Below, one piece after another: positions 2-20,596 of a stretch of 32,000 nucleotides of DNA; position 1 is the first letter of the stretch; the number at the start of each line of letters is the position of its first letter. The stretch is from an uncultured archaeon (GTDB lineage: Archaea; Asgardarchaeota; Thorarchaeia; Thorarchaeales; Thorarchaeaceae): positions 150,001 to 182,000 of the forward strand of contig CAYHAA010000002.1 in assembly GCA_964354495.1 (NCBI GenBank). Direction: 5' to 3'. The notes below the pieces were generated by a model, which was not told where the DNA came from, did no database searches, and saw only the letters and a list, made by a program, of their open reading frames with translations. Position numbers and translations under genes: made by a program.

Positions 2-1843
2 GACTCAATTGAGGAGTTCTTTGAATCACCTCAAGATGTCGAATGGGCAATTGACCAGCAGGGAGAAATCCATCTCCTGCAATCCCGTCCAATAACGGCT
101 AAGGCAAGAATAATGGGCAAAGACAAGGACGAGATCTTCTGGACTCGAGGATACGCCGACGATTACTGGAACGATCCCGTGACGCCTCTATTCTACAGCC
201 TGCTAGGGGACCAGATAACATACATTGTGAACATCGAAGCTAATGCAGTAATGGGCTACAAGAATATGCCCGATACGCTTCTCAAGCTCTACAAGGGACA
301 TGCCTACTTCAATCTCGACGTGCTTCGCACGAAGGTCGTGAATGAGATGCCGCCGTTCATCAGATCAGACGATGTGATGAATTACTTCCCAGAGGGATCT
401 GGACCGTACGGCAAGGATACCATGAGGAAACTCCCCTTCGCCCTCCCAACGAGAATCATGGCCGAGATTCGAGTGATGCTACTTGATGCCGATGGCAGTA
501 TGACGAAGACAAACTCAGCGTACGAAAAATGGACAAAAGAGACCTTCGAGCCAGCATGCAAGGTCTTCGACTCGAAGCTGGAAAGCCTAAGGGAAAACGG
601 CACCCTAGAGGATTATATTGAGATTGCAGATGACCTAGATAAGACGATGATGCGTCACTTTAGAATGGTCAGGTACGGTCTTCCAGTTCATACGCTCGGC
701 ATGAATCTGATCACCAATTATCTGCTAAAGCGATGGTTGGGCGAAAAGGCTGCAACTACACTGTATCCGATTCTTCTCTCTGGTCTCAAACACAAGACCC
801 GCGAAACCAATAGGAGAATCGATGAGCTTGCTTCAATCATTCGAGATAGTCCTGAACTCACGAGAATCTTGCAGGACGTTCCTTCTCAGGATCTTCTGGT
901 TCATTTCCGAAGACAACCTGAGGCGGGTTCTCTGTTTATGACGAAGTTCGATGAGTTCATGGTTGACCTAGGTGACCGTGGTTTCACGAGAGAGCCATAC
1001 TTCCCGAGATGGAGAGAGCATCCAGCCTATGTTTTTGACATACTGAAGTCACTCGTGTCTGAGGGATCAAGAAACCTGAAGCAAGGAGAAGAAGATCTGG
1101 CACAAAAGCGTGCGAAAGCCGAGAAGCTGGTAGTAGAGGTAATTCGCGCTCAGAGATATGGCCCCATCAAAAAGATGCTCTTCTCAACCATCCTAGGAAT
1201 GGCAAGAACTTATGTCTGCTTCAGGGAGAATCAGAGGTTCAATCTTGACCGCTGGATCACTCGTGAGAGAAATGCATACCTCGAGATTGGCAAGCAACTT
1301 GTCAAGAAAGGATACTTTGGAGAGCCAAAACATGTGTTCTTCCTCTTTAGAAATGAGTTGAGAGGGGTAGTGAGGGGCAAATCGAAACTTGATAAAGAGA
1401 ATGTCAAAAGCCTTGTTGCGGAACGCTACGAGGAATTCCTCAAGTATGAGAACATCACGCCCCCAAAGTTTCTGCATGGCGATAGAGAGTTTGATGACCC
1501 AATACCGACATCTGCCGAAGGTTTCAAGGGAATGCCTGCAAGTCACGGATTGGTTACGGGGCAGGTACGTGTGTTAGCGAGCGTTGAGGAAGTTCCACAG
1601 GTGCGAGCTGGTGAAATACTGATCGTGCCGCGAACAGATCCCGGATGGACTCCGGTCTTTTCCAAAATAGGGGGTCTTATCACAGAAACTGGAGGAATTC
1701 TCTCTCATGGTGCAGTGGTAGCACGCGAGTTTGGCATTCCTGCTGTCACTAATGTGCGGAATGCCTGCCAGGTTTTCAAAACAGGACAAAGAGTGACAGT
1801 AGACGGAAATAAGGGAATTGTACTTAGGCTTGATTCGGAGTGA
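2..1843 (+). CDS. PEP-utilising dikinase of the rifampicin-phosphotransferase (RPH)/PigC architecture (ATP-grasp, substrate domain, C-terminal phospho-His swivel); 5' truncated by window edge
   Basis: The frame is open from base 2 (DSIEEFFESPQDVEWAIDQQGEIHLLQSRPIT, the end of a PEP/pyruvate-binding ATP-grasp domain), so ATG 113 is internal. The middle domain begins FWTRGYADDYWNDPVTPL. The C-terminal mobile domain is TDPGWTPVFSKIGGLITETGGILSHGAVVAREFGIPAV. There is no PEP-binding TIM barrel after the His domain, so it is not a canonical PpsA/PPDK. Confidence 0.9.
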   Translation, partial: DSIEEFFESPQDVEWAIDQQGEIHLLQSRPITAKARIMGKDKDEIFWTRGYADDYWNDPVTPLFYSLLGDQITYIVNIEANAVMGYKNMPDTLLKLYKGHAYFNLDVLRTKVVNEMPPFIRSDDVMNYFPEGSGPYGKDTMRKLPFALPTRIMAEIRVMLLDADGSMTKTNSAYEKWTKETFEPACKVFDSKLESLRENGTLEDYIEIADDLDKTMMRHFRMVRYGLPVHTLGMNLITNYLLKRWLGEKAATTLYPILLSGLKHKTRETNRRIDELASIIRDSPELTRILQDVPSQDLLVHFRRQPEAGSLFMTKFDEFMVDLGDRGFTREPYFPRWREHPAYVFDILKSLVSEGSRNLKQGEEDLAQKRAKAEKLVVEVIRAQRYGPIKKMLFSTILGMARTYVCFRENQRFNLDRWITRERNAYLEIGKQLVKKGYFGEPKHVFFLFRNELRGVVRGKSKLDKENVKSLVAERYEEFLKYENITPPKFLHGDREFDDPIPTSAEGFKGMPASHGLVTGQVRVLASVEEVPQVRAGEILIVPRTDPGWTPVFSKIGGLITETGGILSHGAVVAREFGIPAVTNVRNACQVFKTGQRVTVDGNKGIVLRLDSE

Positions 1844-12933: not shown

Positions 12934-14691
12934 TCACTTCACCCTAGTTCGGAAGTACAGAACAAGGACAACAAGAAGCGAGAGACCACCCAAGAGAAAC
13001 ACCGCAATATAGATTTGTAGAGGGCCTCCGCCATAACTCATCGCTGAAATTGTGATGTTTGTCCATGGAGTCTCTTCGATATTATTGACAGATGAGTTGT
13101 CCTCGGCTATGACCTTGAACCATACTATTTGCCCATGGGTATACTCCCCTAGAGAGGCACCGAAGAAATCACCAATCTCAGTGCGTTCCATGGACCTGTT
13201 CTCGAACACGAAACCAGCATCTTCGGGGTCTCCAACTCCCCATTGGACTTCTATCCTCTTGATATGGTTCAGGTCCCAGACATATGCCTGAACAGTCAGA
13301 TTATTGGTTATCTGAGTTGTCAGCGTTTGAATCACATAGATGTTGGAAAGGATTGGATTGTGTGCATCTGGCGTAACATGAACTTGAATGACTGCAAACG
13401 ACGTGAAATTGAAGTAGTCGCTCAGAGTCATATTGTAGGCATAGTCGCCAACAGCAAGGCCATCGACGAATATTGTGAAGTTGTCGCCTCTCCAGGTCCC
13501 GTTTTGTAGGACTTCGCCATTTCTTGTGAGATTGTACCACAGGGGATTGCTCTCTTCGACACCCCAAGTGATATTGTATCCGGTGTAGCCCTCCTCGTAG
13601 GTGAGATCATCTGCAGGCTCGATGACTGGTGCGCGAATGTCCATGTATACAGTGACATTTACGGAGTCTGTTGAGTTGAATCCAAAGTCGTCAAAAGCGG
13701 TCAGTTTTATCGTGTAATTGCCCAGAAACAGACCATCCAAGGTAACGATGATTTGCTGTCCCTCTGGATCTGAGAAACTCCAGTTCGGTTGGACTATATC
13801 GACAAATGGATGAAACGCTGAGACATTACCATAAGCCGTATCATTGTAGTGAACTGTTGCTTTCACCGTGTAGTTCTTGGGATTACTATCGTAGACGGAC
13901 CAATTGATGTAATGTCCTTCAGAACCGAACTCAAATAGAATATTATCTGGAGATGACAGTAGCGGGTTCGTTAGGTCAACAGTCACTGTAACGTTCACGA
14001 AGCTAGTCGCGTTTCGACCAAACGTATCATTGACAAAGAGGGCATACAGATACCAGCGACTGGCATTGAGATCATCAATGTCCACAACGATATTTGTTCC
14101 GTTCCAAACACCACCTGCAATCCGGGTATAGTTAGAAGTTGGTTCGTTTGATGTCCGTGTGACATTATAGTAGTCGGGATTTGACTCTGTTACATTCCAG
14201 TTGATCTCATGTCCGAAGCTTCCTACTTCGTATGTGATGTTATCATGCTGCTGAATAATCGGCGCAGTTTCGTCAAGAATGACTCTCAGTACTGTCTGCG
14301 CAGAAGCAGACTCATTTGCTTCGTTGTTGACTGTGACTTCGAAGTTGAATTGCATGGGCAATGTAGTAATCATGTGTCTTGTGTAAAGATAGACCAAATT
14401 CACGGTAAGCTTGCCGCTAGCCCAAACGCCACTGTCGTAGCTACTGCCATTGGCAGTGACGGAGTAGTTCTTTGGATTTGCATCGAATGTGTCGTAGATG
14501 AGGGTCTCGCCCACACTGCCATTTTCGAATTGATAGAAAGTGGGACCTGTTATCGTTGGAGCAGCTGGTTCCATCACACGAATCTGAGCGAAAGGAATGC
14601 TCACATCGTTGATCGAGATGACATATGGCGAAAGTACGAACCAAGTCAACATGAGTGCGATAATAAAACGGCTGCGATTCAATGAAACCAT
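12934..14691 (-). CDS. Secreted, membrane-anchored glycoprotein with tandem Ig-like repeats
   Basis: N-terminal signal/TM, four repeats of about 100 aa, dense N-glycosylation sequons, and C-terminal TM LQIYIAVFLLGGLSLLVVLVLYF followed by RTRVK. Confidence 0.85.
   Translation of the reverse strand: MVSLNRSRFIIALMLTWFVLSPYVISINDVSIPFAQIRVMEPAAPTITGPTFYQFENGSVGETLIYDTFDANPKNYSVTANGSSYDSGVWASGKLTVNLVYLYTRHMITTLPMQFNFEVTVNNEANESASAQTVLRVILDETAPIIQQHDNITYEVGSFGHEINWNVTESNPDYYNVTRTSNEPTSNYTRIAGGVWNGTNIVVDIDDLNASRWYLYALFVNDTFGRNATSFVNVTVTVDLTNPLLSSPDNILFEFGSEGHYINWSVYDSNPKNYTVKATVHYNDTAYGNVSAFHPFVDIVQPNWSFSDPEGQQIIVTLDGLFLGNYTIKLTAFDDFGFNSTDSVNVTVYMDIRAPVIEPADDLTYEEGYTGYNITWGVEESNPLWYNLTRNGEVLQNGTWRGDNFTIFVDGLAVGDYAYNMTLSDYFNFTSFAVIQVHVTPDAHNPILSNIYVIQTLTTQITNNLTVQAYVWDLNHIKRIEVQWGVGDPEDAGFVFENRSMERTEIGDFFGASLGEYTHGQIVWFKVIAEDNSSVNNIEETPWTNITISAMSYGGGPLQIYIAVFLLGGLSLLVVLVLYFRTRVK
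13369..14562 (-). repeat. Four tandem ~100-aa protein repeats (Ig-like beta-sandwich)
   Basis: Repeat starts: APTITGPTFYQFENGSVGETLIYDTFDANPKNY; APIIQQHDNITYEVGSFGHEINWNVTESNPDYY; NPLLSSPDNILFEFGSEGHYINWSVYDSNPKNY; APVIEPADDLTYEEGYTGYNITWGVEESNPLWY. Confidence 0.85.
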
Positions 14692-14891: not shown

Positions 14892-15809
14892 GTGCCTAAG
14901 GCTATCTTTTCCATTTGGTGGGATGACCGTCTTGGACCCATGGTCGGGCGTTCGTATCCTGAGGCAGCACCACTCTCCAGTGAGGAGGCCGTCACAGTCT
15001 TCATGGGTCATGGAGCGAACATGGAGATACAGGTAGGATACTCCAAGATTCAGAGTGGCGTTGTGATATCATATATGAGACCACCAAACTGCATAGCCGT
15101 TCTCCTAGATGATGGGGAGAACAGCTCGACAATAGAGAGGAACCTCTTGCGGCTTGCGCCTACTATTGATTTCAATAGCGATACCTGGGATAGAGAACTG
15201 GAAAAGGCATATCGTGGTCTTGAGGACCTAATCACTGAAACCACTGGCGAGGAACTACTCCTGAATCCGAATGTGAAGCATCTCGTCGCAGATATGATGA
15301 ATGGCCGGCTTGCGTCAGTAGCACCAAAACATGTACTGAAGGCAACAATCAGATACCCAGATGCACATGAGTATCTAGGTAACGACGATGAAGAAGTGCT
15401 GAGACTTCTCAGAGACCTCGAGGATGAGGAAGTGCTTGAGTCGCGTACGTATGGCCGAAGAGTTGAGTGTCGCCAGTGCGGTGATTCTGATTTGATAGTC
15501 AGTCTTCTGTGTCCTTCATGCAACTCTGAGGACATACACAAGGTCTACACAGTGTATTGCCCTAAATGCGGTAATCAATTCCAGACATTATTGGCCGATG
15601 ATCTTGCAGTAGTCAAATGCTTGAGCTGCAAACAACCAGTGAAGGTCAGCCAGCTCTCTGTCATCGATGTCGAGCCGCTATGCAATAAATGCGGTACTGC
15701 ATCCAATGACCCAAAGATAGTGTTCAAGTGTGGGACATGCGGAAAGCAGTTGAAAGGGGCCGATCTACTATCGGGCACTGGATTGTCGTACTATTTCAGG
15801 AATGTGTAG
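14892..15809 (+). CDS. uDENN/longin-like N-terminal domain fused to a winged-helix / multi-Zn-ribbon domain (TackOD1-like)
   Basis: N-terminus AIFSIWWDDRLGPMVGRSYPE fits the uDENN/NPR2-type start pattern. The C-terminal half has EEVLRLLRDLEDEEVLES followed by six CxxC pairs (CRQC, CPSC, CPKC, CLSC, CNKC, CGTC). GTG start. Confidence 0.7.
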   Translation: MPKAIFSIWWDDRLGPMVGRSYPEAAPLSSEEAVTVFMGHGANMEIQVGYSKIQSGVVISYMRPPNCIAVLLDDGENSSTIERNLLRLAPTIDFNSDTWDRELEKAYRGLEDLITETTGEELLLNPNVKHLVADMMNGRLASVAPKHVLKATIRYPDAHEYLGNDDEEVLRLLRDLEDEEVLESRTYGRRVECRQCGDSDLIVSLLCPSCNSEDIHKVYTVYCPKCGNQFQTLLADDLAVVKCLSCKQPVKVSQLSVIDVEPLCNKCGTASNDPKIVFKCGTCGKQLKGADLLSGTGLSYYFRNV

Positions 15810-15832: not shown

Positions 15833-17440
15833 CTAGCTATCTTCCTTCTTCTTTCCTTTCTTTATTGTCTTCTTCACTACAGTTCTTGCATCTTTCACTA
15901 TCTTCTCAGCGCGTGCGTCACTGAGTCCATCGATCTTCTGTGCAAGCCTTTGCGGCGTTTCACCAGCGAGCTGGACGGCAGACTCGTAACCAGCCGCCTT
16001 CAGCTTCTTCTCCAGAGCCTCGCCAATTCCAGGAATTCCTTGAAGGGACAGATTTGACTTTGAATCTTCACCGAGTATCTCACTCATATCGTTGTCACTC
16101 AACTCAGCACTCGCATCGATTATGTCGAGCTGGCTCTTTACTGAATCAAAGTCATGTGCTCCAACAAAAGCGTCAACGGTCTTTTTCACTTGACGGTCAT
16201 CAAAGTCAAAGGCCAATTCCTCAATCTCTATCTCCCTTCCTAGAATCTCTGGAAGACCCCCTATAAGGTACATGGCAATAAGAGATGAGAATATGGCCAC
16301 TTGTCCACCGAAGACTGGTAGGTAGTCAGGAATATGAAACTGTATCCCGAAAACAAGGATGTTGAGATCAACAGCCCAGTACAGTACCATATAACCAAGA
16401 AAGAAAAACCAAATCAGGGATAGCCGAAGTCCCTTTGTTCGAACAGAGCCGAGCTCTGGCCAGATCAGACACAGGCATAGTCCAAGAAGGTAGCCCTCGA
16501 AGAACCTTTCAGAACTGAGTAGGACCTGAAGCAGTGAGAACAAGTCCGAATCCTGAAAGAAACCAGTGTATAGAGTGGAACCAAAAATAGCCAATAATCC
16601 CATCATCAAAAGAGCAAAACTGAAGGCGGGCTTTCTACCCCTAATGTCAGCCATGACGCCAGCAACTGCTATGCCAAGGATGAGAGCAAGCGTTTCGAGT
16701 ATGGGTAAGTTAACATACTGACTCAATGATTCAAAAGAGGGCTCTCCTGCAAAATACTTCTGAAAGCTGAGTTTCATCACCAAATACCAAAGCATGTATG
16801 AAGCCATAATCAATACAGTAGGGACGAAATATGTGAGAACATTCCCTGATGCTGCGAGACGCACCCTAGGTTGCCGCCAGGGCTTCATGCCAATTGAAAC
16901 GGTCAGAAACACAATCCCGATAACTGCGGGTAGGGTGAGATAGGAAGAGCCCAGGAGGATGCTCATCTGCTCAAATAACGCATAGAGAGTGACGAGGATT
17001 ATTGTGACGGACAGGAATATTGCTACCGTGCGACCCCGATACTTCACAATGATGCCTTGATTGACACGAACAGTCCATAGAACCAAGAGAGAGGCCAATC
17101 CAGCAAATGAAGATAGTACTAGGAGCAAGTCCACAGTTTCCAGTTGCTGCAACGTGAGCGGAGCAAGTCTAAGCAATGCAACTATTGGCGTGACTACCGC
17201 GGCGAGTACTATCAAGAAGTCAATTCTTCGTATCCGATCTGCAAGAATACCCGTCAATGGAAGTGCAAAGACAGCAGCGAGTGCACCGAACCCTAGTAGT
17301 CCGTAGTGTTCTAGGAGTGTCAGACCAAAGAGAGTGCCTGATATCAGTTTCAGCAGGATATAGGTATTCAGTGCTGCAGGACCAGCAAATAGAATGAAGA
17401 TAATTGCAGTCTTTGTCGGGAACTCACGATACTGAAGCAT
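15833..17440 (-). CDS. MFS-type transporter with C-terminal helix-hairpin-helix (RadA/Rad51 N-terminal-like) domain
   Basis: Motif A occurs in both halves (GILADRIRR, GVMADIRGRK) among about 12 TMs. An acidic linker leads to GIPGIGEALEKKLKAAGYESAVQLAGETPQRLAQKIDGLSDARAEKIVKDAR and a Lys-rich tail. I prefer ATG 17440 (GGAG upstream); the ORF track starts at 17491. Confidence 0.8.
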   Translation of the reverse strand: MLQYREFPTKTAIIFILFAGPAALNTYILLKLISGTLFGLTLLEHYGLLGFGALAAVFALPLTGILADRIRRIDFLIVLAAVVTPIVALLRLAPLTLQQLETVDLLLVLSSFAGLASLLVLWTVRVNQGIIVKYRGRTVAIFLSVTIILVTLYALFEQMSILLGSSYLTLPAVIGIVFLTVSIGMKPWRQPRVRLAASGNVLTYFVPTVLIMASYMLWYLVMKLSFQKYFAGEPSFESLSQYVNLPILETLALILGIAVAGVMADIRGRKPAFSFALLMMGLLAIFGSTLYTGFFQDSDLFSLLQVLLSSERFFEGYLLGLCLCLIWPELGSVRTKGLRLSLIWFFFLGYMVLYWAVDLNILVFGIQFHIPDYLPVFGGQVAIFSSLIAMYLIGGLPEILGREIEIEELAFDFDDRQVKKTVDAFVGAHDFDSVKSQLDIIDASAELSDNDMSEILGEDSKSNLSLQGIPGIGEALEKKLKAAGYESAVQLAGETPQRLAQKIDGLSDARAEKIVKDARTVVKKTIKKGKKKEDS

Positions 17441-17501
17441 AGATCTCTCTCCAAGGAATGAAGTATCCTGAAACTGATGGGTTATGGACATTTCGACTTC
17501 T

Positions 17502-17510
17502 TATTTATAT
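17502..17510. promoter_or_regulatory. TATA-like element in the divergent promoter between the MFS-HhH gene and the longin operon
   Basis: TATTTATAT reads as ATATAAATA on the minus strand and TTTATAT on the plus strand. Confidence 0.4.
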
Positions 17511-17598
17511 CGAGTGACCTGAAGATGCGCCACCAATAAACATCAGCGATATCTTAAAGACCTCCTAGTTTTTCCTCAGATGCAAGGAGTAAGAAAGC

Positions 17599-18501
17599 TT
17601 GGTTGGGAAGCTCGGCGTAAACGAATTCATGGTCTTGACTACAGGAGGTACTCCGATTTTCCACTACTCTACAACAGACACTCCAAAGCTTGATCATCTC
17701 CTCTCGGGATTCATTAGTGCAATAACAAGCTTTGCAACTGAATTTGGCGAGCGATCCGTTCAGAGCCTATCATTCGAAGGTTCACAGCTTCTCTATGAGC
17801 AACACGAGAATAGCTACCTCTTTGTTTTCCTTGTAGAAACTGGTTCATCAGAGAAGGTGCTTCGCGCAGTACTGCGTGAGCTAAGCAAGAAATTCATGTC
17901 ACAATATGAAGACGAGTTGAAGATGGATGTCCCGATTCTAGATGTCTTCATGGCCTTCGAACAAGAGGTCAAAAGCGTACTATCTCACTATGAAGGAGTT
18001 CTTACAGCAATATCAGGCTTCAGCAGCTTCTCAGTCCCTGAAATCAAGAAGGCGAATTTGGACACAGCAATCGAATCAGGCGGTTTTCTTGACGAATTCC
18101 ATCGTGACTTTGGCACCTCGGGCAACAGAATTCTATCCATGATAGATGGCAAGAAGACGCTTTATGATATGAGTCGTGATCTCGGAATCACTCCAGAGGA
18201 AATCCGAGATGTGGTTGAATACCTGGCCATCAGAGGATTCCTAGGCATCTCAAGACTCTGCCCACTAATAAAAGGGAATGATGCGCGCTTTGAAGCATAC
18301 CTAGACATTGTGGGCCTTCCAAGCAAAGACTATCAGCTTCTTGAGAGAGCAAAGAATCTCTGCAACGGGGAGAGAACACTTGGAGAAGTCAGTGAAAGAC
18401 TTGGAGTCAATCCTGAGAGGCTCTATGATGTTCTCGAGAAGATGGGAGAGGAGGTTGAATGGAAACTCGTTGAAGTTTCTACTTCTTTCCATGCACGATG
18501 A
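17599..18501 (+). CDS. Longin domain + tandem winged-helix protein A (NPRL2-like architecture)
   Basis: Longin signature FMVLTTGGTPIFHY...LLSGFISAITSFATEF...LRELSKKFMSQY. Two wHTH-like units: ILSMIDGKKTLYDMSRDLGITPEEIRDVVEYL and LCNGERTLGEVSERLGVNPERLYDVLEKM. TTG start with AAGGAG upstream. Confidence 0.75.
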   Translation: MVGKLGVNEFMVLTTGGTPIFHYSTTDTPKLDHLLSGFISAITSFATEFGERSVQSLSFEGSQLLYEQHENSYLFVFLVETGSSEKVLRAVLRELSKKFMSQYEDELKMDVPILDVFMAFEQEVKSVLSHYEGVLTAISGFSSFSVPEIKKANLDTAIESGGFLDEFHRDFGTSGNRILSMIDGKKTLYDMSRDLGITPEEIRDVVEYLAIRGFLGISRLCPLIKGNDARFEAYLDIVGLPSKDYQLLERAKNLCNGERTLGEVSERLGVNPERLYDVLEKMGEEVEWKLVEVSTSFHAR

Positions 18502-18576
18502 CCTTGGTTCACTTTCTTCGAAGTGATTAAGTAGGTCTTTGTTTATGGCGAACCACGGTTCTGGGAGAATACTCCA

Positions 18577-19854
18577 TTGGTCAAAGAGATCATTGTGCTG
18601 CAAGAAGGAGGGATACTTCTCTTCCACTATAGCATCGGTGGCACGAAGAAGCTGGATGAACTGGTTGCAGCATTCCTATCCGCAGTCGATTCGTTGGCGC
18701 AGCAGGTAGGACGAGATAGAATCACAACGATTTCGTTTGCTGCCAATAAGCTAGTCTGGGAAAAAAAAGGTAACCTGTTCTTCATTGCAATGATTTCTGA
18801 GGAGAGCACCAATGAGATATTTAGAATCATACTTAGAGACCTCGCTGAGCAATTCGTAAGCATGTATTACGGGGACTTGATGAACGAATTCTTTGACTTG
18901 GGGAGATTCAAGTCATTCACAGATGTTGTGGAAACGACACTCCACAAATTCGACGGTATTCCCGGCTTGGCAAGGCGGTATAAGACGATCCTGCTACCAT
19001 CTGAAGAGCTGAATGTCTTGGCAAAAAAGCTTGTTGAAGTAGAAATCAGCCGAAATATCCTTCGAGGATGTCTTATCACTTCAGATGGGTACATTGCTCT
19101 ATCGCATCTTCGCGCCTATGAAATCGAGATAGTTCTGGACCTTATGCCCATTCTGCTTCGAGATGTTGAAATCAGGGAGCATGCGAGTCTCGAAAAACCA
19201 ACAGCTCTTCTTCTCATCAGGACTCGTAACAAGGGCATCGCCGCATTCATCGTAAGAATTGGATTATCTGAGGAGTCGTACTATGAATTGGTGACACCAT
19301 TCATAGCCTATGCTTCAGAGGCTGATTTTGAAAGCGCAAGGAAACTGGAGCCTGAGAGGATAGAAAGTCAGATTTCATTCTACGATTTTGATAGAGTCAA
19401 GCCCATTGCCAGTATCGACAGCATTGAGGACGAACTGAGTTCGCTGCTTGGCTCAGCCTCTGAAAACAGCCGTTCAGGCGCAATCAAACTGAGAGAAACG
19501 CTTCCAGAAACGCCACTAGTGGCTGAGATCGAGCAGATTCTGGATCTACCTAAGAATCAATTAGACGAATTGCTAGCCAATCTAATAGCTAGAAACATGA
19601 TCAGAATAATGAAGGTGTTTCCAACTCTCGACGAGCGTGATGAGAGGTTCTCAGTGTTTCTGGAGGTCATCGGGATTAAGAAGAAAGACTTCGATGTCGT
19701 TAACACTATCTGGAAGTATTGCGATGGTAGTCTTTCAATACAGGAAATCTCAGAAAGAACAAGCATTCCTGCGCCTAGGATTATGGAAGTCCTGCGCGCA
19801 CTTGGAAACAATGTTACTTGGTCCAACGATCGGAGGTTAGTTCATGTCAGGTAA
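18577..19854 (+). CDS. Longin + roadblock-like + tandem winged-helix protein B, paralog of 17599..18501
   Basis: Longin IIVLQEGGILLFHY...LVAAFLSAVDSLAQQV...LRDLAEQFVSMY. Central ILRGCLITSDGYIALSHL is a roadblock-like pattern. The C-terminus ERFSVFLEVIGIKKKDFDVVNTIWKYCDGSLSIQEISERT aligns by eye with protein A ARFEAYLDIVGLPSKDYQLLERAKNLCNGERTLGEVSERL. Confidence 0.75.
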   Translation: MVKEIIVLQEGGILLFHYSIGGTKKLDELVAAFLSAVDSLAQQVGRDRITTISFAANKLVWEKKGNLFFIAMISEESTNEIFRIILRDLAEQFVSMYYGDLMNEFFDLGRFKSFTDVVETTLHKFDGIPGLARRYKTILLPSEELNVLAKKLVEVEISRNILRGCLITSDGYIALSHLRAYEIEIVLDLMPILLRDVEIREHASLEKPTALLLIRTRNKGIAAFIVRIGLSEESYYELVTPFIAYASEADFESARKLEPERIESQISFYDFDRVKPIASIDSIEDELSSLLGSASENSRSGAIKLRETLPETPLVAEIEQILDLPKNQLDELLANLIARNMIRIMKVFPTLDERDERFSVFLEVIGIKKKDFDVVNTIWKYCDGSLSIQEISERTSIPAPRIMEVLRALGNNVTWSNDRRLVHVR

Positions 19855-20596
19855 AATCATATCAATACATAGTTTTCGTGGAGGAACAGGAAAGTCGAAC
19901 ATTGCTGCAAATCTTGCAGCACATGCTGCGTTGCAGGGAAAAAGAGTAGCAGTCATGGACACTGACATGGCATCACCAGGCATCCATGTCATATTTGGCC
20001 TGGGCCGGGAGAAATTGAAGTATACGCTCAACGACTATCTAAGGGGTTCATGTGATATCACCGATGCTTGTATCGATTTGACAGACCGTTTGGGTATCAA
20101 GAGAGGAAAGCTCTTCCTTATTCCGAGCTCCATGACTGCCACGGATATCACTCGAATTCTGAGAGAAGGCTATGAAGTGGGAGACCTCAAGAAGGGCTTC
20201 ACTGACGTGATTAAGGCAAAAGATCTTGACTACCTCATTATTGACACGCACCCGGGGTTAGACAGAGAGACTCTACTATCGATGGCAATAGCACACTACC
20301 TGTTTGTCGTAGCGAGAATAGATGAACAAGACCTCTTAGGAACAGCCGCCACATTGAGCGTTGCAAGAAAACTTCAGGTCCCTGAAATACGAATCATCAT
20401 CAACAAAAAACCCGGAATCTATGAGGACAAGGCGATTATTTCTGAAGTTGAAACAAAATTCAAGGCACGAGTTGCCACAATCATTCCACTTCTTCCATTA
20501 TTGATAGAAGTCGGTAGTCGCTTCGTGGTCATCTTGAGATATCCGGAAAACGAATTCGCAAAGAACATTGATGACATCTACAGAATAATCCTGTAG
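19844..20596 (+). CDS. MinD/ParA-family (SIMIBI) P-loop NTPase with atypical Walker A
   Basis: HSFRGGTGKSN, VMDTDMASPG and YLIIDTHPG. The start overlaps the upstream gene by 11 nt. No obvious MinD C-terminal membrane-targeting extension. Confidence 0.9.
   Translation: MSGKIISIHSFRGGTGKSNIAANLAAHAALQGKRVAVMDTDMASPGIHVIFGLGREKLKYTLNDYLRGSCDITDACIDLTDRLGIKRGKLFLIPSSMTATDITRILREGYEVGDLKKGFTDVIKAKDLDYLIIDTHPGLDRETLLSMAIAHYLFVVARIDEQDLLGTAATLSVARKLQVPEIRIIINKKPGIYEDKAIISEVETKFKARVATIIPLLPLLIEVGSRFVVILRYPENEFAKNIDDIYRIIL

Follow-up and report, generated by a model that had tools for sequence, protein, structure and literature searches.

The DNA analysed here, hereafter called the window, is a stretch of 32,000 nucleotides from an uncultured archaeon of the Thorarchaeaceae (contig CAYHAA010000002.1 of assembly GCA_964354495.1). 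The gene of interest, its parts and the neighbouring genes which bear on its interpretation are located in the window as follows, with residue numbers referring to the predicted protein:

12934..14691, minus strand: divergently transcribed gene for a membrane-anchored PKD/Ig-like surface protein of 585 amino acids (Pfam K319L-like_PKD)
14892..15809, plus strand: whole gene of the longin-linker-TackOD1 protein, 305 amino acids, GTG start, stop codon at 15807-15809
14892..15242, plus strand: longin domain, residues 1-117 (AF2 model and structure searches)
14919..14939, plus strand: motif W10-D11-x-x-L14-G15-P16 in the beta1-beta2 hairpin (conservation and C9orf72 spacing)
15243..15335, plus strand: predicted helical linker, residues 118-148, with helices 119-124 and 126-136 (AF2 models)
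15336..15461, plus strand: predicted winged-helix core of TackOD1, residues 149-190 (VIA search with the full model)
15462..15761, plus strand: three predicted Cys4 zinc ribbons, residues 191-290, with six CxxC pairs (invariant Cys, Pfam and AF2)
15762..15806, plus strand: C-terminal tail DLLxGTGLAYY, residues 291-305 (conservation; DSSP strand 297-302)
15833..20596: genes for an MFS-HhH membrane protein (minus strand), two paralogous longin-like/winged-helix proteins, A and B (plus strand), and a MinD/ParA-like ATPase (plus strand) (Pfam, NCBIfam)

The open reading frame 14892-15809 is real and uninterrupted according to the ORF list and its translation, and corresponds to 305 amino acids from a GTG start codon, as originally predicted. 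The homologs have a Met at the same start position (MPKAIFSIWWDD), and the N-terminal string on which the original prediction was based corresponds to residues 3-24. A search of 5.8 billion proteins returned 143 homologs at E ≤ 1e-3, most of them of approximately 305 amino acids and nearly all containing the Pfam family PF18551, so that the match of the ORF is far beyond chance. Those with a named source are almost all from metagenome-assembled genomes of Thorarchaeota, and are annotated as 'hypothetical' or as 'TackOD1 domain-containing metal-binding protein'. Of the 76 other genomes of the window's own family among 301 sampled from the phylum, 63 had a single-copy match. The source genome itself (3.3 Mb, 97.7 % complete) has the longin-TackOD1 gene as its sole TackOD1 gene.

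More distant relatives, with 18-30 % amino acid identity, were obtained with residues 1-150 from 1.8 billion representative sequences and with the full-length protein from the 301 Asgard genomes. Some of these have the same architecture, and others have the same N-terminal domain followed by ordinary winged helices, without zinc ribbons. An extra search starting from relatives of P0130 yielded no more than two further proteins. The best explanation of these data is a soluble, acidic protein consisting of three parts, a longin domain, a helical linker and a TackOD1 module.

The N-terminal domain was modelled with AF2. With an alignment of 22 close homologs, residues 1-65 were below pLDDT 50, which was fixed by a deeper alignment of 40 sequences including the distant relatives (A2), from which residues 1-117 were modelled with pLDDT 87.5 and pTM 0.73. 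The predicted secondary structure consists of strands 4-11 and 15-22, helix 30-38, strands 48-53, 56-63 and 66-71, and helices 78-91 and 99-115, corresponding to the beta-beta-alpha-beta-beta-beta-alpha(-alpha) topology of longins with a five-stranded sheet packed against helices.

In an exhaustive VIA comparison of this model with 48,161 PDB chains, the best 50 rows were all longin or roadblock domains. The best match was a chain of the SEA complex, 8adl_S (Z 10.2, rmsd 3.0 over 115 residues), followed by an AP-3 chain, 9c58_M (Z 9.8), GATOR1, 8fw5_C (Z 9.5), a Lokiarchaeal longin, 8yqg_B (Z 9.4), Lst4 (Z 9.1), DENND1A (Z 8.8), chains of the FLCN-FNIP2 complex (Z 8.5 and 8.4) and a chain of the C9orf72-SMCR8 complex, 7o2w_A (Z 7.6). 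Structure searches of the ESM Atlas gave Asgard hypothetical proteins first (TM 0.64-0.70), then eukaryotic NPR2 (TM 0.65, 134-142 residues aligned over residues 1-142), and also DENND11, Afi1/Avl9 uDENN proteins and MON1. The ESM Atlas feature search, the scores of which (0.81-0.83) serve as leads only, included one cluster with 19 % NPR2. Foldseek E-values were weak with either AF2 model (3.5e-3 or worse), with match lists rich in longins.

The confident AF2 model together with the longin and roadblock matches in VIA and the NPR2, DENND11 and Avl9 matches in the ESM Atlas confirm the modelled fold of residues 1-117 as a longin, and the N-terminal half thus models as originally predicted. The ranking agrees with a 'GAP-type', uDENN-like longin of the kind found in FLCN, SMCR8, C9orf72 and NPRL2, the longin subtypes being separated by small Z margins of about 1-2 units. 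At the sequence level, residues 1-150 of this protein and of four relatives had no relevant match to any Pfam or NCBIfam family at E ≤ 10, and hmmscan of the same regions gave no match to the NPR2 (PF06218), uDENN or Avl9 models. The A2 HMM profile and a single-sequence search found no longin among the PDB sequences, only spurious helical or DARPin matches, and a profile of the full-length protein found nothing useful there. The prediction of a uDENN/NPRL2-type longin is therefore borne out by the fold, for which Npr2/NPRL, FLCN/FNIP, uDENN and Avl9 proteins provide the nearest structures, but not by any Pfam match, and the assignment to the NPR2/uDENN subtype depends on the fold and on a short motif.

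In the eukaryotic complexes, the loop of the first beta-hairpin lines the nucleotide pocket of the client GTPase. The corresponding hairpin of the window protein contains G15-P16 between strands 1 and 2, that is, in the loop before strand 2, and these residues are invariant in 21 of 21 aligned longin-TackOD1 proteins from several Asgard families. D11 is nearly invariant, and residue 10 varies between W and F among the homologs. The relatives which have only winged helices likewise retain D11 and G15. A GP motif just before strand 2 has been described as a specific feature of the GAP-type longins, namely C9orf72, SMCR8, FLCN and NPRL2, and as absent from the FNIP2, NPRL3, adaptin, TRAPP and DENND longins; in C9orf72 its neighbour is the essential W33-D34 (Kalvoda et al., PMC12290439). 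According to the same paper, GP-motif longins occur in some Asgard archaea. The window protein reads W10-D11-D-R-L-G15-P16-M-V and human C9orf72 reads W33-D34-N-I-L-G38-P39-R-V (sequence from PMC12114033, numbering from PMC12290439). The spacing of WD and GP is thus identical in the two proteins, with seven of the nine residues reported as matching (six of nine by the printed letters). In the VIA alignment, residues 1..117 of the model correspond to 24..190 of 7o2w_A, consistent with both motifs being in register.

An arginine finger next to the GP loop is supplied by the FLCN, NPRL2 and SMCR8 subunits, and none comes from C9orf72. R20 of the window protein is invariant only within the window's family, and the alignments of relatives contain no Arg that is kept throughout the domain family. 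It is therefore doubtful that this chain could act as a catalytic GAP by itself, and the domain may resemble the finger-less C9orf72 more than a catalytic subunit.

The C-terminal half was assigned to TackOD1 by Pfam, PF18551 matching residues 149-296 with E 1.6e-16 and 60.9 bits (gathering cut-off 32) over profile positions 33-182 of 188. This score is moderate compared with the 82-130 bits of other Asgard TackOD1 proteins. There are exactly six CxxC pairs, as the original prediction had stated (C193/196, C207/210, C223/226, C243/246, C264/267 and C280/283), and none of the twelve Cys varies among 22 homologs with 54-82 % identity. The region also matches zinc-ribbon Pfam families below threshold, and AF2 models it as beta-hairpins with pLDDT of about 70-88. 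In the tail, D291, L292, L293, T296, G297 and Y300 are invariant.

In the full-length model the C-terminal two thirds have pLDDT of about 70-90, and the winged-helix core consists of helices 156-162 and 166-178 and strand 182-187. Compared with the PDB by VIA, the full model matched only winged helices of the ArsR/MarR/Phr type (Z 7.9-6.5, rmsd about 2-2.5 over 62-71 residues). The alignments range over 118..305, yet only approximately 68 residues are aligned. The span of these matches and the predicted strands 182-187 and 297-302 suggest that TackOD1 may be a winged helix with the three zinc ribbons inserted in its wing, which would be closed by the C-terminal strand 297-302.

TackOD1 has been described from Thaumarchaeota and other TACK archaea, in which it occurs as a stand-alone protein (arCOG06883) and in REC-TackOD1 and REC-wHTH-TackOD1 proteins (Galperin et al. 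2018, PMC5847659). The original prediction placed the longin in the position of the receiver domain of such a response regulator. As architecture this is a fair description, since no REC domain was found by Pfam or NCBIfam and the N-terminal domain folds as a longin, but the logic of an input and an output is a matter of interpretation. In Asgard archaea TackOD1 is also fused N-terminally to Lrp/AsnC regulators, so that it is better described as a mobile module than as an output domain in the strict sense. Its fusion partners thus include REC, longin and Lrp/AsnC domains.

The winged helices on which the TackOD1 core superposes are of a DNA-binding type, and the gene is transcribed divergently from that of the PKD-like surface protein. 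The divergent pair is kept in the family and also in a sister family, in which the longin-TackOD1 protein has 25 % identity with that of the window; it is the only adjacency surviving there, the other window genes tested not being found nearby. The protein could accordingly be a transcription factor, with the winged helix and ribbons of TackOD1 binding DNA and regulating the PKD-like gene, and with the longin serving as a sensor or dimerisation domain. The Asgard TackOD1-Lrp/AsnC fusions would be compatible with such a function, as would the REC-TackOD1 fusions of TACK archaea, where many output domains bind DNA (PMC5847659). The charge of the protein argues against it: the winged helix has a net charge of -5 (mean -1.9 across the homologs), the sequence of its presumed recognition helix is DDEEVLRLLRDLEDEE, the zinc ribbons form a neutral to acidic region, and the pI of the whole protein is 5.0. 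From the acidic winged helix and the low pI, the partner of TackOD1 is more likely to be a protein than DNA. The winged helices of NPRL2/3-like proteins, moreover, are protein-binding modules. As the two families belong to one order, the conserved pairing with the PKD-like gene may also be inherited synteny. Regulation of the PKD-like gene by DNA binding is thus considered quite improbable.

The original prediction further proposed that the protein may belong to the same system as the longin-wHTH-MinD operon downstream. Proteins A and B (17599-18501 and 18577-19854) are encoded 1.8-2.8 kb downstream and are paralogs of each other (E 1.2e-49). Like the window protein, they have a longin-like N-terminus, followed in their case by tandem winged helices, and they belong to the same block of genes conserved across the family. 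The window protein could therefore be a third subunit which works together with A, B and the MinD-type ATPase (1.8-4.9 kb downstream), for example by longin-longin pairing, without a small GTPase. Such pairing would have a precedent in the GAP-type longins of eukaryotes, which act as heterodimers (PMC12290439).

Synteny was compared in 20 loci of the family, covering about 12 genera and identities of the longin-TackOD1 protein down to 44 %. The order PKD-like gene (minus), longin-TackOD1 gene (plus), MFS-HhH gene (minus) and longin-wHTH gene A (plus) was kept in all 20, and in 14 of them B and MinD followed A uninterrupted. The MFS gene on the opposite strand was, however, always in between, and in 13 of the 20 loci an extra gap of approximately 1 kb separated it from the longin-TackOD1 gene; in the single locus examined, this gap contained an Mtd gene (E 8e-109). 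The conserved block is also much larger than the operon, extending over 15-20 kb and including genes for GTP cyclohydrolase II, an FrhB-like protein and AOR, so that adjacency to the operon need not be functional.

Outside the family, the longin-TackOD1 and lonB-like genes were on different contigs in every genome for which both were listed. The lonA profile had matches in 283 of the 301 sampled Asgard genomes and the longin-TackOD1 protein in 103, clear orthologs over the full length being confined to the window's family, and there is thus no specific co-occurrence with the operon. By sequence, A and B represent another longin family, having matches below threshold to Pfam Fuz_longin_1 where the window protein has none, and profile-profile comparison of their longins with the N-terminal domain (hhalign) was not significant (E 0.11 and 0.016). 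A and B also lack zinc ribbons and have a GG-x-P motif, not WD...GP, and their profile matches are nearly universal in Asgard archaea. Within the family the linkage is therefore genuine (20 of 20 loci), but it was absent from the other Asgard families checked and is not evidence of a shared system. With the intervening MFS gene, the housekeeping character of the synteny, the separate contigs and the dissimilar longins, the claim of a common system is not supported, and a role as third subunit of the neighbouring system is regarded as unlikely.

The distant relatives have a different neighbourhood. In 20 loci from other Asgard families, a gene for a Ras-superfamily GTPase was located within 370 bp of 11 of the 21 distant homologs. 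The recurrent GTPases either match Pfam Ras (E 1e-47 to 1e-54) or are Arf/Roc-like with an N-terminal extension of approximately 120 amino acids. At least four independent arrangements occur in different lineages, as follows:

Three genomes of one genus: GTPase gene 33-43 bp upstream, co-directional
Three genomes of another genus: 5-9 bp apart, convergent
Three genomes of the lineage named 'Promethearchaeati': 269-370 bp apart, divergent
Two Odinarchaeota genomes: the genes overlap by 8 nt

For the homolog from Freyarchaeum, the GTPase gene is located 1.8 kb upstream. Ras-family genes number about 15-30 per genome, with 27 in the source genome; as they make up an estimated 1 % or so of the genes, a flanking GTPase gene would be expected in approximately 2 % of cases.

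The source genome itself encodes two paralogs of the domain, of 402 and 368 amino acids and without zinc ribbons. Each is followed on the same strand by the gene of an Arf-like GTPase (Pfam Arf, E 5e-21 and 3e-19), after 449 bp in one case and with an overlap of 4 nt in the other. A strong association of this domain family with small GTPases is thus apparent, in agreement with what the fold and the motif would predict. The window protein and its family orthologs are the exception. There is no GTPase gene inside the window, the nearest Ras-family matches in the source genome being about 19-38 kb away, and most of the 20 family loci have no GTPase gene within about 9 kb. Among the Thorarchaeal proteins, no ortholog of the lineage-paired GTPases stands out, all matches having 32-39 % identity. 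A complex of the operonic Rab-like GTPase and its longin-TackOD1 partner at locus L069, modelled with GTP and Mg, scored 0.17, below the mark of 0.32, which counts neither way.

Taken with the GAP-type longin fold and the WD...GP motif, the GTPase neighbourhoods point, with a likelihood somewhat above even, to a small-GTPase-linked adaptor or regulator in which a GAP-type longin is combined with a metal-stabilised winged-helix module. The longin would dock onto a Ras-superfamily small GTPase, as a subunit of a GAP or GEF or as an effector, and it may pair with a second longin which supplies the arginine finger, as SMCR8 does for C9orf72. The rigid, metal-bound TackOD1 would then couple the state of the GTPase to another partner, which its charge suggests to be a protein more probably than DNA. 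What the analysis shows is the architecture, the folds, the motifs, their conservation and the tendency of the domain family to adjoin GTPase genes; that this particular protein would bind a GTPase, that it might act as a GAP and what TackOD1 would do are inferred. This adaptor reading, DNA binding at the PKD-like gene and participation in the neighbouring system are not mutually exclusive.

In a more specific and distinctly speculative form, for which the chances appear low, the protein would be the C9orf72-like, finger-less half, with its WD and GP residues, of a longin GAP or GEF which in archaea acts on a Rab- or Arf-like GTPase, and TackOD1 would relay the GTPase state to an output of prokaryotic style, for example a regulator of transcription or of surface structures. 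If true, it would be a direct physical bridge between small-GTPase signalling of the eukaryotic type and archaeal signalling of the two-component type, and the operonic GTPase/longin-TackOD1 pairs of other Asgard lineages would be its ancestral, experimentally tractable form.

The longin GAP complexes GATOR1, folliculin and C9orf72-SMCR8 control nutrient signalling at the lysosome. The longins of NPRL2/NPRL3 (GATOR1/SEACIT), FLCN/FNIP and C9orf72/SMCR8 have the same fold as that of the window protein and are among its top structural matches. The window protein shares with these complexes the GP before strand 2 and the WD at the spacing of C9orf72, and with NPRL2/3 the succession of a longin, a helical segment and a winged helix; in addition, its domain relatives adjoin small-GTPase genes. 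In contrast, no sequence homology with the eukaryotic proteins was detectable with Pfam NPR2, uDENN and Avl9 or with PDB longin chains. The window protein also lacks a DENN domain, the C-terminal domain specific to NPRL2 and a family-wide arginine finger, and ends instead in the archaeal TackOD1.

Asgard NPRL2-like longins fused to domains related to two-component systems are presented by Liu et al. (bioRxiv 10.1101/2020.10.19.343400, Fig. 5c), and the principle of joining an NPRL2-like longin to such a domain is, from that figure, already published. These fusions and the GP-longins of PMC12290439 agree with the window protein in lineage, in design (a eukaryote-like longin with a prokaryotic signalling module) and in the GP motif. 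The Asgard longins of PMC12290439 are said to keep the arginine finger, whereas the window family has no clear one. The details added here are the register of WD...GP with C9orf72, the wing-insertion reading of TackOD1, the confinement of the linkage with the MinD operon to one family, and the recurrent adjacency to GTPase genes, which provides testable partner pairs. Which GTPases, if any, are partners of the Asgard GP-motif longins is a question asked in PMC12290439. The gene family offers concrete candidates for such pairs, with a longin gene beside, and sometimes overlapping, that of a Rab- or Arf-like GTPase, which could be co-expressed and assayed.

The TackOD1 of TACK archaea has five CxxC motifs and one HxxC (about 11 conserved Cys), occurs in thaumarchaeal type IV pilus loci and is of obscure function (PMC5847659). 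It has in common with the C-terminal half of the window protein the Pfam match, the multiple CxxC pairs and the winged helix before the ribbons. Compared with REC-TackOD1 proteins, the window protein has a longin and no receiver at its N-terminus and is not encoded in a type IV pilus locus, and its HxxC is replaced by a sixth CxxC, giving twelve conserved Cys. For this module the model provides a structural reading, as a putative winged helix the wing of which carries three zinc ribbons.

Two paralogs of the longin domain of the longin-TackOD1 protein, of 402 and 368 amino acids and lacking zinc ribbons, are encoded in the window's own genome. Each is followed on the same strand by a gene encoding an Arf-like GTPase with an N-terminal extension of approximately 120-130 amino acids, and in one of the two pairs the genes overlap by 4 nt. 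The pairs are regarded as candidate operons:

L075:3774-7357 (contig C1, ~146.8-150.4 kb), both genes on the same strand, longin paralog and Arf-like GTPase
L076:3875-5829 (contig C1, ~398.9-400.8 kb), both genes on the same strand, longin paralog and Arf-like GTPase

At two other Asgard loci the longin-TackOD1 gene lies about 6 kb from a gene for a fusion protein, in which an N-terminal TackOD1 domain (113-130 bits) precedes an AsnC-type HTH and a ligand-binding domain of the Lrp/AsnC type, an architecture missing among those given for TackOD1 in the consulted passages of Galperin et al. 2018 (PMC5847659):

L053:2967-4070, (-), TackOD1-AsnC-type HTH-Lrp/AsnC ligand-binding protein
L070:2703-3917, (-), the same fusion

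Homologs from the Freyarchaeum lineage carry an additional C-terminal region of about 170 amino acids. Behind each homolog lie two genes, with products of 326 and 960 amino acids that have weak similarity to longin-wHTH protein A of the window, in its longin part:

L053:9532-10941, longin-TackOD1 homolog
L054:1130-2530, longin-TackOD1 homolog

Other genes in the window include:

12934-14691, (-), 585-amino-acid protein with a weak PKD-like match
19844-20596, (+), MinD/ParA-like ATPase

The PKD-like protein has hydrophobic segments at both termini and numerous N-x-S/T sites, and the divergent arrangement of its gene and the longin-TackOD1 gene persists as far as the sister family (L052, L077, L078). 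The ATPase, in which Walker A starts S-F-R-G-G-T-G-K-S, shows much stronger conservation within the family, with identities of 75-96 % compared with 33-94 % for its neighbours.

A gap of about 1 kb separates the longin-TackOD1 and MFS-HhH genes in 13 of the 20 family loci and is absent from the window's genome. The one gap examined holds the gene below; the 12 others are of similar size.

L033:10473-11339, (+), methylene-H4MPT dehydrogenase (Mtd)

Directly downstream of longin-wHTH relatives in Odinarchaeota and one other Asgard lineage, giant proteins of 1375-2028 amino acids are encoded (L060:11010-15137, L061, L062, L066, L067). The L060 protein, the only one scanned, had no Pfam match; a signal-peptide-like N-terminus is common to the set.
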